A stretch of DNA of 64,000 nucleotides, taken from the NCBI GenBank assembly GCA_030609135.1, contig JAUWCU010000003.1:55-64054 (forward strand). Reading direction: 5' to 3'. A program made the position numbers and the translations under genes. Every line of letters starts with the position of its first letter. The stretch's first letter is position 1. This document shows positions 36,374 through 37,165 of the stretch, piece by piece. This stretch comes from Candidatus Stahliibacteriota bacterium. GTDB lineage: Bacteria > Hydrothermota > Tepidihabitantia > SM23-42. The notes under the pieces are model-generated. The model was given only the letters and a program-made list of their open reading frames with translations. It did not search any database and was not told where the DNA came from.

Positions 36374-36394
36374 TCCAGGTAAGTTTATAGTATT

Positions 36395-36468
36395 CGTAGT
36401 GGTCGAGTTCACTCGACAAACATCCTTGCACGCCACGGTATTTGTGCAGAGCAAGCTCTGCCACTACA
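36395..36468 (+). repeat. 74-nt REPIN-like element, copy 2
   Basis: cGTAGTGGtcgagttcactcga...ctctgCCACTACA, 22 nt after the speB stop. Confidence 0.85.
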
Positions 36469-36523
36469 TGTGTTCTTGATTCGTTCCAGTATCCAACCCA
36501 AACCCTTTTTCCATACTCACAGT

Positions 36524-36583
36524 TATAGTCGCTCGATTCATCGAGCCAATCTAATGGAGCGTCTGATAAATCAGACAACTACA
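36524..36583 (+). repeat. 60-nt REPIN-like element (direct repeat of 36816..36875)
   Basis: tatagtcgctcgattcatcgagccaatctaatggagcgtctgataaatcagacaactaca. Confidence 0.85.
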
Positions 36584-36613
36584 AAGATTAATCAAATTGT
36601 TACATCATATCAT

Positions 36614-36650
36614 TGTAGTTGCTCGATTCATCGAGCCAATTTACGCGGAA
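36614..36650 (+). repeat. GTAG-headed hairpin unit tgtagttgctcgattcatcgagccaatttacgcggaa
   Basis: The 'ccaatttacgcggaa' tail recurs at 36797..36812. Confidence 0.75.
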
Positions 36651-36743
36651 AGCCCCTCAGACTAGCATAATTACTGTTTCTCTCACCTTGTTCGAGACAG
36701 GCGAGCGAAGTCGAGAACCACCCTTTGCATTTTTCGCCGCCCA

Positions 36744-36794
36744 ATTCATCCCGCTTCGTATTGTAATTCTATAAATAGAATTGCGGGATTTATC
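36744..36794 (-). repeat. 51-nt nested-hairpin unit (copy 6, inverted)
   Basis: attcatcccgcttcgtattgtaattctataaatagaattgcgggatttatc is the reverse complement of the family consensus. Confidence 0.85.
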
Positions 36795-36815
36795 GGGCCA
36801 ATTTACGCGGAAGTA

Positions 36816-36875
36816 TGTAGTCGCTCGATTCATCGAGCCAATCTAATGGAGCGTCTGATAAATCAGACAACTACA
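36816..36875 (+). repeat. 60-nt REPIN-like element (second copy)
   Basis: tgtagtcgctcgattcatcgagccaatctaatggagcgtctgataaatcagacaactaca. Confidence 0.85.
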
Positions 36876-36988
36876 GCGCAGCGTATCTTCAGTGAAACGT
36901 GTCTCCAGCGTAGCGTGTCTTCAACAGAGTGTGTTCTCCATTTCTCCCATACTCCTTTTGTCGATCAAACGCGTGAGGGCATAGTATT

Positions 36989-37062
36989 TGTAGTGGTCGA
37001 GTTTACTCGACAAACATCCCTGCACGCTACGGTATTTGTGCAGAGCAAGCTCTGCCACTACA
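36989..37062 (+). repeat. 74-nt REPIN-like element, copy 3
   Basis: Matches 34251..34324 by eye, including ~38 nt of shared upstream flank. Confidence 0.85.
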
Positions 37063-37120
37063 TGTGTTCGGAATTCCTAATTACCAAATTACTCGGTTAC
37101 ACAACTATAAAAGGCTCGTA

Positions 37121-37148
37121 TTGACACCGCCCATACCGTGCTTATAAT
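37121..37148 (+). promoter_or_regulatory. promoter of the M1 aminopeptidase gene
   Basis: TTGACA-N16-TATAAT; 17-nt leader with AAGGAGG. Confidence 0.65.
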
Positions 37149-37165
37149 TATCGTAAGGAGGAACA

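Follow-up and report, generated by a model that had tools for sequence, protein, structure and literature searches.

Within a 64,000-nt stretch from a Candidatus Stahliibacteriota bacterium (contig JAUWCU010000003.1 of assembly GCA_030609135.1; hereafter, the window), the gaps between genes carry short hairpins headed by GTAG, and a 792-nt gap flanked by agmatinase-like and peptidase M1 genes (positions 36374–37165; hereafter, the focal gap) holds a cluster of them. These units are most probably GTAG-tagged repetitive extragenic palindromic (REP) elements that are recognised on single-stranded DNA by REP-associated tyrosine transposases (RAYTs) and are arranged in doublets like those of bacterial interspersed mosaic elements (BIMEs), which have been built into clusters. 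The window itself has a G+C content of about 40% and contains ordinary housekeeping genes; for one of the encoded proteins, the closest homologues with a name are from 'candidate division WOR-3 bacterium'.

In each unit, a (T)GTAGT head and one unpaired base precede a hairpin that has a 6-bp stem and a TTYA loop. The corresponding pattern (GTAGTNGNNNRRTTYAYYNNNC) matched the window 16 times and was absent from 100 shuffled sequences. In a non-circular test of the palindrome, in which sites were picked on head and loop alone (GTAG-N8-TTYA), a perfect 6-bp palindrome was present at 17 of the 23 window sites, two more sites had five of six pairs, and one further site was a unit interrupted by a 40-nt insert; with any other 4-nt head, perfect palindromes were found at 4 of 2005 window sites. 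The perfect window units have at least nine distinct stems, and variants that differ by compensated pairs were confirmed (e.g., GTCCAA/TTGGAC vs GCCCAA/TTGGGC). The first-pass annotation of this DNA, which had described GTAG-headed palindromic modules and coexisting sub-families with compensated stems, is borne out in both respects. All perfect units lie in non-coding DNA, which accounts for 10.5 kb (16%) of the window, as do all of the approximately 25 units counted in total. Stem covariation was assessed in 150 distinct sequences that were chosen by head and loop with pairing ignored: the helix was paired in 71% of cells (44% in shuffles), and the covariation score of 0.637 (0.208 in shuffles) was matched by none of 500 shuffles, with slid controls all at or below 0.233. 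Covariation of this strength indicates selection on pairing. The units thus show two characteristics of REPs, namely a short palindrome (20–40 nt) with a conserved unpaired 5' GT[AG]G tag and compensatory stem changes giving sub-families (at least nine stems in the window and 39 in related loci).

Other identities were tried and rejected. No T-run was seen after a unit, and no unit was among the 6 terminator-like sites called in 28–40 kb (shuffle mean 9.5), so that intrinsic terminators were set aside. A scan of the window against Rfam 15 matched no unit to any family at gathering score and returned only the tRNA at 29847–29922, which dismisses a known RNA family. A CRISPR array was considered, and rejected, solely from how irregularly the copies are spaced. 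A generic search for units with split loops was dropped as a statistic because its output was mostly adjacent tandem units that had a single mismatch.

The units mostly pair head-outwards, giving doublets bounded by GTAGT...ACTAC, and most head-out heterotypic pairs have a spacer of 3–26 nt. Four doublets had been named earlier (8223–8271, 16189–16256, 29529–29572, and 34251–34324) and all are present. The description of the doublets as REPINs (REP doublets forming hairpins) fails, since the arms carry different stems in 124 of 130 doublets, differing at 1 to 4 of 6 stem positions (95%). Five doublets were folded as single-stranded DNA: those at 8222–8272, 16188–16247, and 36815–36876 formed two hairpins and a closing stem of 5–6 bp (TGTAGT/ACTACA) with z-scores from −3.5 to −6.5, and the 76-nt doublets at 36394–36469 and 21217–21292 folded weakly (z −1.6 and −1.75). 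The near-identical inverted arms and single long hairpin of a strict REPIN did not characterise these doublets, whereas the alternating REP types, short linkers, and mosaics of BIMEs did, in the form of the heterotypic pairs and of the mosaic cluster in the focal gap. Because the two arms have different stems, the doublet is BIME-like rather than a strict REPIN.

To place the doublets in other genomes, a doublet pattern with fixed head, loop, and purine/pyrimidine classes was scanned against one genome per species, which yielded no fewer than 119 stretches, spread over more than 15 phyla, where about 0.1 chance matches are expected by our own estimate. Nearly all of the listed stretches are metagenome-assembled genomes (MAGs). 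Host groups among the matches listed include Poribacteria, Dehalococcoidia and other Chloroflexi, Zixibacteria, Omnitrophota, Ignavibacteria, Nitrospirae, Nitrospinota, Elusimicrobia, Lentisphaerae, Victivallis, Planctomycetes, Doudnabacteria, Saccharibacteria, Stahlbacteria, and others. In about 1 Mb of the listed loci, 514 sites were picked by head plus loop, of which 343 proved to be perfect palindromes; the distinct stems number 39, and the consensus is TGTAGT-T-GCCCRA-TTYA-TYGGGC.

RAYT genes were searched for in the listed doublet stretches with RayT of E. coli MG1655 as the query (tblastn and phmmer). A RAYT-like open reading frame (ORF) was found in 4 of the 119 stretches (Victivallis L004, Poribacteria L041, Doudnabacteria L044, and Dehalococcoidales L112). 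All four contain the PxHxH and YIxxNP motifs and have GTAGT-type units on both sides, and in L112 one of the units beside the gene matches window positions 8335–8356 exactly. Among NCBIfam models, all four match NF047646 best (REP-associated tyrosine transposase; E 1e-18 to 1e-25), and three of them match Pfam Y1_Tnp. The L112 protein has 976 homologues, many of which were named 'REP element-mobilizing transposase RayT' by JGI and two of which are labelled WOR-3. We examined four RAYT contigs of WOR-3 type (L128, L131, L136, and L139; two of the proteins, P0124 and P0087, are WOR-3-labelled): the gene is flanked by units in all four, with arrays of units in L136, and its TAG stop codon overlaps the head of the next unit in three. 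The RAYT genes in L260 and L261 are flanked in the same way. The proposed link between REPs and RAYTs therefore holds at the level of the family, with RAYT genes flanked on both sides in four unrelated MAGs and in the WOR-3-type loci. In three WOR-3-type lineages (L128, L136, and L139), the RAYT gene adjoins the same neighbour, which encodes a 582–585-aa protein with a Por_Secre_tail domain; this suggests vertical persistence at a stable position. RAYTs of this clade are 60–66% identical between Chloroflexi and WOR-3, a level of sequence identity that suggests horizontal spread.

These results extend the REP/RAYT system to WOR-3 and, by means of the common doublet, to Poribacteria, Zixibacteria, Omnitrophota, the candidate phyla radiation (CPR), and other uncultured phyla; our literature search turned up no publication that describes REPs or RAYTs from WOR-3, Poribacteria, or other candidate phyla. 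This is a known system in new phyla rather than a new kind of element, and near-identical units and RAYTs across phyla provide a data set for testing horizontal REP–RAYT movement.

Copies in the window were then compared with three syntenic contigs (L123, L124, and L127) from relatives, whose genes are 88–95% identical to those of the window. Two of about nine unit sites in 26–40 kb are common to the relatives, which also bear units without a window counterpart, so that the comparison of orthologous gaps proposed in the first-pass annotation reveals mostly lineage-specific sites. The focal gap is about 260 nt long in the relatives, compared to 792 nt in the window, and only its doublet at 36817–36874 has a positional counterpart (in L123 and L127). 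In place of the composite at 33998–34509, the relatives have flanking genes that overlap at ATGA; the insert takes the place of roughly the final ten codons of the upstream gene and puts a perfect TTGACA-16-TATAAT (34474–34501) ahead of the downstream gene. The repeats can thus remodel operon junctions, as this one insertion parts overlapping genes and adds a consensus promoter. The doublet at 32195–32347, which the relatives also lack, is flanked by a 57-nt direct duplication (32138–32194 = 32348–32404) and is truncated at its right end (GAC in place of GACTAC). The gap that includes 39049–39164 contains different units in the relatives, and the doublet at 29529–29571 is an old common copy (Table 1). 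No target-site duplication was seen at the polymorphic unit sites. Since the relatives lack most of the window copies, units have been gained and lost; old fixed copies together with recent gains are the pattern of mobile REPs, and this mixture argues against fixed structural RNAs.

The focal gap was confirmed to be a cluster of such units, comprising doublets, a single unit, and a split unit (Table 1). A third hairpin (CTGCAC..GTGCAG) sits between the arms of doublet D in its first copy, and the first copy of doublet E reads GCTCGA-TTCA-TCGAGC, a 14-nt spacer, and GTCTGA-TAAA-TCAGAC-AACTAC. With regard to the repeats reported earlier in this gap, the direct repeat stands, at 58 nt and 100% identity (36526–36583 = 36818–36875), whereas the '74-nt copies' turned out to be the cores of 96-nt repeats that are 93% identical. 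The element that splits the loop of the headless unit (TCCCGC..GCGGGA) occupies 36749–36788 in minus orientation. The promoter-like site at the downstream end of the gap is conserved in the relatives and is not part of the repeats. Logan short-read contigs with the peptidase gene stop 126 nt upstream and 141 nt downstream, both inside repeats, and one Logan contig with the downstream gene ends inside the repeat at 36981–37076, as expected for multi-copy sequence; the repeats thus break short-read assemblies.

Table 1 Positions of REP-like units, doublets, and composites in the window, with the promoter-like site of the focal gap
Position	Strand	Feature	Remark
2531–2682	+	Doublet, arms GTCCAA (plus) and GCCTCA (minus)	Holds two tandem 40-nt nested elements
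8224–8270	+	Compact doublet, arms GCTCGA and CCTGA	Fold z −6.5
8335–8438	+	Unit GTAGTTGCCCAATTTATTGGGC, then minus-strand TCCGA-stem unit split by 40-nt element	Fold z −5.8
16190–16245	+	Doublet, arms GTCGGA and GTGCAA	
21219–21290	+	Doublet, arms GCGACA (imperfect stem) and GCACGA	Second copy at 62689–62760
29529–29571	+	Doublet	Position common to relatives; their left head decayed to ATAG
32195–32347	+	Doublet with nested elements	Not in relatives; 57-nt duplication at flanks
33998–34509	+	Repeat composite, ~480 nt, including doublet D at 34252–34323	Not in relatives
36387–36482	+	Repeat block with doublet D, copy 1	93% identical to 36981–37076; also matches 34214–34330
36396–36417	+	Doublet D copy 1, left arm GTAGTG-GTCGAG-TTCA-CTCGAC	
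36446–36467	minus	Doublet D copy 1, right arm GTAGTG-GCAGAG-CTTG-CTCTGC	
36524–36583	+	Doublet E, copy 1	Head decayed to ATAGTC
36615–36636	+	Single unit GTAGTT-GCTCGA-TTCA-TCGAGC	
36737–36798	+	Headless unit GCCCAA-TTCA / TTTA-TCGGGC	Loop split by 40-nt element
36817–36874	+	Doublet E, copy 2	Intact GTAGTC head; fold z −3.5
36981–37076	+	Repeat block with doublet D, copy 2	Arms 36990–37011 (plus) and 37040–37061 (minus)
37121–37148	+	Perfect promoter-like site TTGACA-16-TATAAT	Ahead of peptidase M1 gene
39049–39164	+	Unit GTAGTG-GTCGAG-TTTA-CTCGAC and GTAGTT-headed complex hairpin	
62689–62760	+	Doublet GCGACA/GCACGA, second copy	

Under the mechanism that we propose, the GTAG(T) tag, the 6-bp stem, and the TTYA loop would form, on single-stranded DNA, the structure recognised by a RAYT/TnpA_REP transposase of the HUH/Y1 type, and the BIME-like doublet closed by GTAGT/ACTAC would probably be the moving unit. 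By analogy with E. coli TnpA_REP (Messing 2012, PMC3479197), a RAYT encoded elsewhere in the genome would bind, cut, and rejoin the hairpins in trans, and the units could spread via single-stranded DNA at replication forks. Clusters such as that in the focal gap would then result from repeated gain, local duplication, and decay. Both the in-trans and the replication-fork steps also draw on the biochemistry of E. coli TnpA_REP by Ton-Hoang 2012.

Several observations weigh against the REP/RAYT reading. No RAYT-like ORF was detected in the window or in about 55 kb from its closest relatives (tblastn with E. coli RayT and a hidden Markov model built from five RAYTs), so that we infer the action of a RAYT on the copies in this genome from the family-level association only; likewise, none of ten RAYT homologues looked up came from the samples of the window. 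Three of the four RAYT proteins score under the NCBIfam curated cut-off of NF047646, and the count of about 25 units is for the 64-kb window, whereas REPs are characterised by more than about 100 copies per genome. The one datable insertion (32195–32347) fits recombination or template switching better than clean Y1 transposition, and copies within the focal gap may stem from local duplication rather than transposition.

The units could instead be structural RNA or DNA elements selected by the host (terminators, 3'-end stabilisers, insulators, or protein-binding sites), with an incidental link to RAYTs. Such a function is consistent with the selection on pairing that the covariation indicates, with the exclusively intergenic location of the units, often between the end of a gene and the next promoter, and with the doublet held in place across relatives at 29529–29571; moreover, secondary roles of REPs are known elsewhere, according to the Di Nocera 2013 survey (PMC3733652). 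We nevertheless consider it unlikely, because the units occur in both orientations without T-runs, terminator-like calls, or Rfam matches, because genomes with about 90% identity differ at most of the sites, and because the bracketing of RAYT genes by the same units in many phyla would be left unexplained. Individual copies may have been secondarily exapted.

A mobile origin of another kind would make the units remnants or miniature derivatives of IS200/IS605, similar to palindrome-associated transposable elements (PATEs); the units would then be moved not by a RAYT but by TnpA_IS200, alone or together with TnpB. In favour of this origin, the associated proteins match Pfam Y1_Tnp ('Transposase IS200 like'), the L112 protein scores 43.7 bits on the NCBIfam IS200 model, and the pair of unlike hairpins in a doublet resembles those at the left and right ends of IS200/IS605. 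Against it, each of the four proteins obtains a better score with the RAYT model than with the IS200 one and contains the RAYT-type YIxxNP motif. The GTAG tag, the inverted rather than direct hairpins of the doublets, the lack of any TnpB-like gene called beside the RAYT in the contigs examined, and the large excess of units over the gene also make this origin very unlikely. That the doublets are ordinary miniature inverted-repeat transposable elements (MITEs) of a DDE transposon, as their non-coding nature and short inverted termini (TGTAGT/ACTACA) might imply, or an artefact of chance or composition, is scarcely credible: the termini extend over only 5–6 nt, polymorphic sites have no target-site duplication, no DDE transposase was called beside the RAYT in the contigs examined, and shuffled sequences gave 0 matches. 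We therefore retain GTAG-tagged REPs in BIME-like doublets as the best explanation of the units.

GTAG units are not the only hairpin repeats in the window. The first-pass annotation had one GTAG-headed superfamily filling almost every gap between genes; a GTAG unit is clearly present in 10 of the 16 gaps that it listed, with the gap at 18.4–18.7 kb borderline, and five gaps (5.5, 11.0, 24.9–25.2, 25.5–25.8, and 48.0 kb) hold other hairpin families instead. Because several families without GTAG occur in the gaps, the claim was overstated. An apparent 2.2-kb gap at 0.7–2.9 kb is largely accounted for by a gene on the minus strand that continues past the window end (0.7–2.4 kb). The TGTCATTGCGA-headed family has 13 matches with at most one mismatch (1.3 in shuffles), with sites at 24921–24958, 25136, 34062, 34179, 34366, 39023, 39189, 47975, and others, and compensated variants at 5495 and 32414. 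This family resembles the CGTC/TGTC-tagged REP superfamily, the second superfamily in PMC3733652, the stems of which begin with AT. The CCCCGTT...AACGGGG hairpin family is found at 16310–16345, 18440–18470, 18550–18640, 25770–25800, and 32005–32095, and a GTTCGAG...GTCGAGAAC module represents a further non-GTAG family in the window gaps. We know of no dedicated transposase for the CGTC/TGTC-tagged REP superfamily. None of these hairpin repeats was found in the long gaps at 53.1–53.8 kb and 59.9–60.1 kb. The segment at 52000–58000 has a low G+C content (31–34%), and its long gaps, including 53080–53842, are free of hairpin repeats, so that it may be recently acquired DNA.

Some units are themselves hosts to a smaller repeat. 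The 40-nt element TCCCGC..GCGGGA, which has its own inner hairpin, is present in 13 copies, only in the lineage of the window (the window, L123, L124, and L127); its window sites are 2564–2647, 8383–8422, 29645–29684, 32249–32288, and 36749–36788. It always lies in the loop of a GA|TAAA|TC hairpin, where it is preceded by TAAA and followed by TAAA (once TGAA), is at times a tandem dimer, and varies in copy number among the relatives. One possibility is a second-tier element with REP loops as its targets; another is a 'complex loop' REP variant as reported in Bradyrhizobium.

In some RAYT genes, a perfect REP unit is part of the coding sequence (GTAGTTGCTCAATTTATTGAGCA, encoding VVAQFIEQ; L128:6118–6141, L131:6133–6155, L136:3391–3414, and L260 at about 1615–1640). 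The 25 nt at this site are invariant in four WOR-3-type genes that are otherwise about 78% identical. The Omnitrophota gene (L260) has the internal stem GCTCGA/TCGAGC, in which a Q-to-R change (CAA to CGA) is paired with a synonymous change from ATT to ATC and pairing is kept. Other RAYT clades have the internal REP only in part or not at all. The RAYT-internal 23-mer is also a dispersed doublet arm, as 113 of its 123 metagenome matches lie outside RAYT ORFs and only 10 inside them; none of the matching loci is related to the window. The internal copy could have a part in self-regulation, or a dispersed REP family could derive from it. Both the internal REP and the nested 40-nt element are suggestive leads only, and it is doubtful, though conceivable, that they combine with the wide distribution into one picture, in which a single lineage of REPs with their RAYT gene (REPtron), consisting of GTAGT-N-6 bp-TTYA units and a RAYT of 132–143 aa, has spread horizontally in many uncultured phyla, with a structurally maintained REP inside the RAYT gene and TTYA loops as integration sites. 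If true, such a lineage would depart from the strictly vertical picture of REPINs and RAYTs, and integration into TTYA loops (the 40-nt element with its duplicated TAAA) would point to loop cleavage or strand exchange.

Larger repeats around doublets were observed in metagenome contigs, where the GCTCAA/GCCCGA and GCTCAA/GCCTGA doublets recur in two larger conserved contexts with inverted flanks, for example CTGTAACAAAAGTT...AAATTTATGTTACAG (L141, L143, L151, L158, L162, and others; L145, L159, L161, L165, and others), which suggests that doublets nest in longer palindromic or MITE-like repeats. Outside the hairpins, the window contains perfect (12/12) sigma-70 consensus sites with a 16-nt spacer at 29812–29839, 29940–29967, 34474–34501, 37121–37148, and 39383–39410, and further consensus sites near 2834, 21329, and 62838. 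Each is placed immediately upstream of a gene or the tRNA, and the sites are not a repeat family, as their spacers are mutually unrelated. In coding sequence, about six copies of a 204-nt tandem repeat (78% matches) occupy 43568–44772, and a 123-nt segment is common to two genes (41762–41884 = 45645–45767); both are protein repeat domains that are unrelated to REPs.

Among known systems, the closest description is that of the GTAG-tagged REP superfamily by Di Nocera, De Gregorio, and Rocco 2013 (PMC3733652), which includes 24 families in Proteobacteria, Cyanobacteria, Chloroflexi, and the Planctomycetes–Verrucomicrobia–Chlamydiae (PVC) group, with the SMAG repeats of Stenotrophomonas among them. 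Compensated sub-families, several families per genome, head-out dimers, heterodimers, complex-loop variants, and REPtrons are already covered there. The units described here share with that superfamily the 5' GTAG tag, compensated sub-families (with stems of 6–9 bp in the survey), several families per genome, head-out (HH) dimers, clusters carrying flanking DNA, heterodimers, complex self-complementary loops, flanked RAYT genes, and non-proteobacterial hosts. The suggestion that such repeats would be unusual outside Proteobacteria is therefore weak, given that GTAG REPs, sub-families, heterodimers, and REPtrons were known from Cyanobacteria, Chloroflexi, and PVC. That survey does not include the host phyla found here (WOR-3, Poribacteria, Zixibacteria, Omnitrophota, CPR, and others). 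Our units also have a longer tag, GTAGT plus one unpaired base, and a 4-nt TTYA loop, which was set by our search pattern (nearly all units found with it are true palindromes), whereas most loops in the survey are 2–3 nt long (TY or CMA). This comparison sets our units beside the 24 GTAG families by text description only.

Similarly to the BIMEs and REPtron of E. coli (Messing 2012, PMC3479197), two different REP types are paired in inverted orientation, a single small HUH/Y1 gene is bracketed by REPs, and a GTAG guide lies beside the foot of the hairpin. E. coli REPs are, however, longer, GC-rich, and bulged, and the RAYTs reported here are about 21–27% identical to E. coli RayT where aligned, most being 132–143 aa long compared to 165 aa. 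The REPIN–RAYT systems of Pseudomonas and enterobacteria (Bertels and Rainey; bioRxiv 10.1101/2021.07.10.451892) offer parallels in the doublet as the likely mobile unit, in the few RAYT genes relative to many non-autonomous copies, and in vertical persistence, which is suggested here by the RAYT gene beside the Por_Secre_tail gene in three WOR-3-type lineages. They differ in that REPINs have near-identical inverted arms and form one long hairpin, whereas 95% of the doublets here have unlike arms and form a three-way junction, and in the RAYT clade that is 60–66% identical between Chloroflexi and WOR-3, which suggests horizontal spread. With IS200/IS605 and PATEs, the units would share HUH/Y1 chemistry, hairpin recognition in single-stranded DNA, and the lack of target-site duplication; in contrast, the end hairpins of IS200/IS605 are direct, their cleavage site is a target tetranucleotide rather than GTAG, and the proteins associated with our units fit the RAYT model better.

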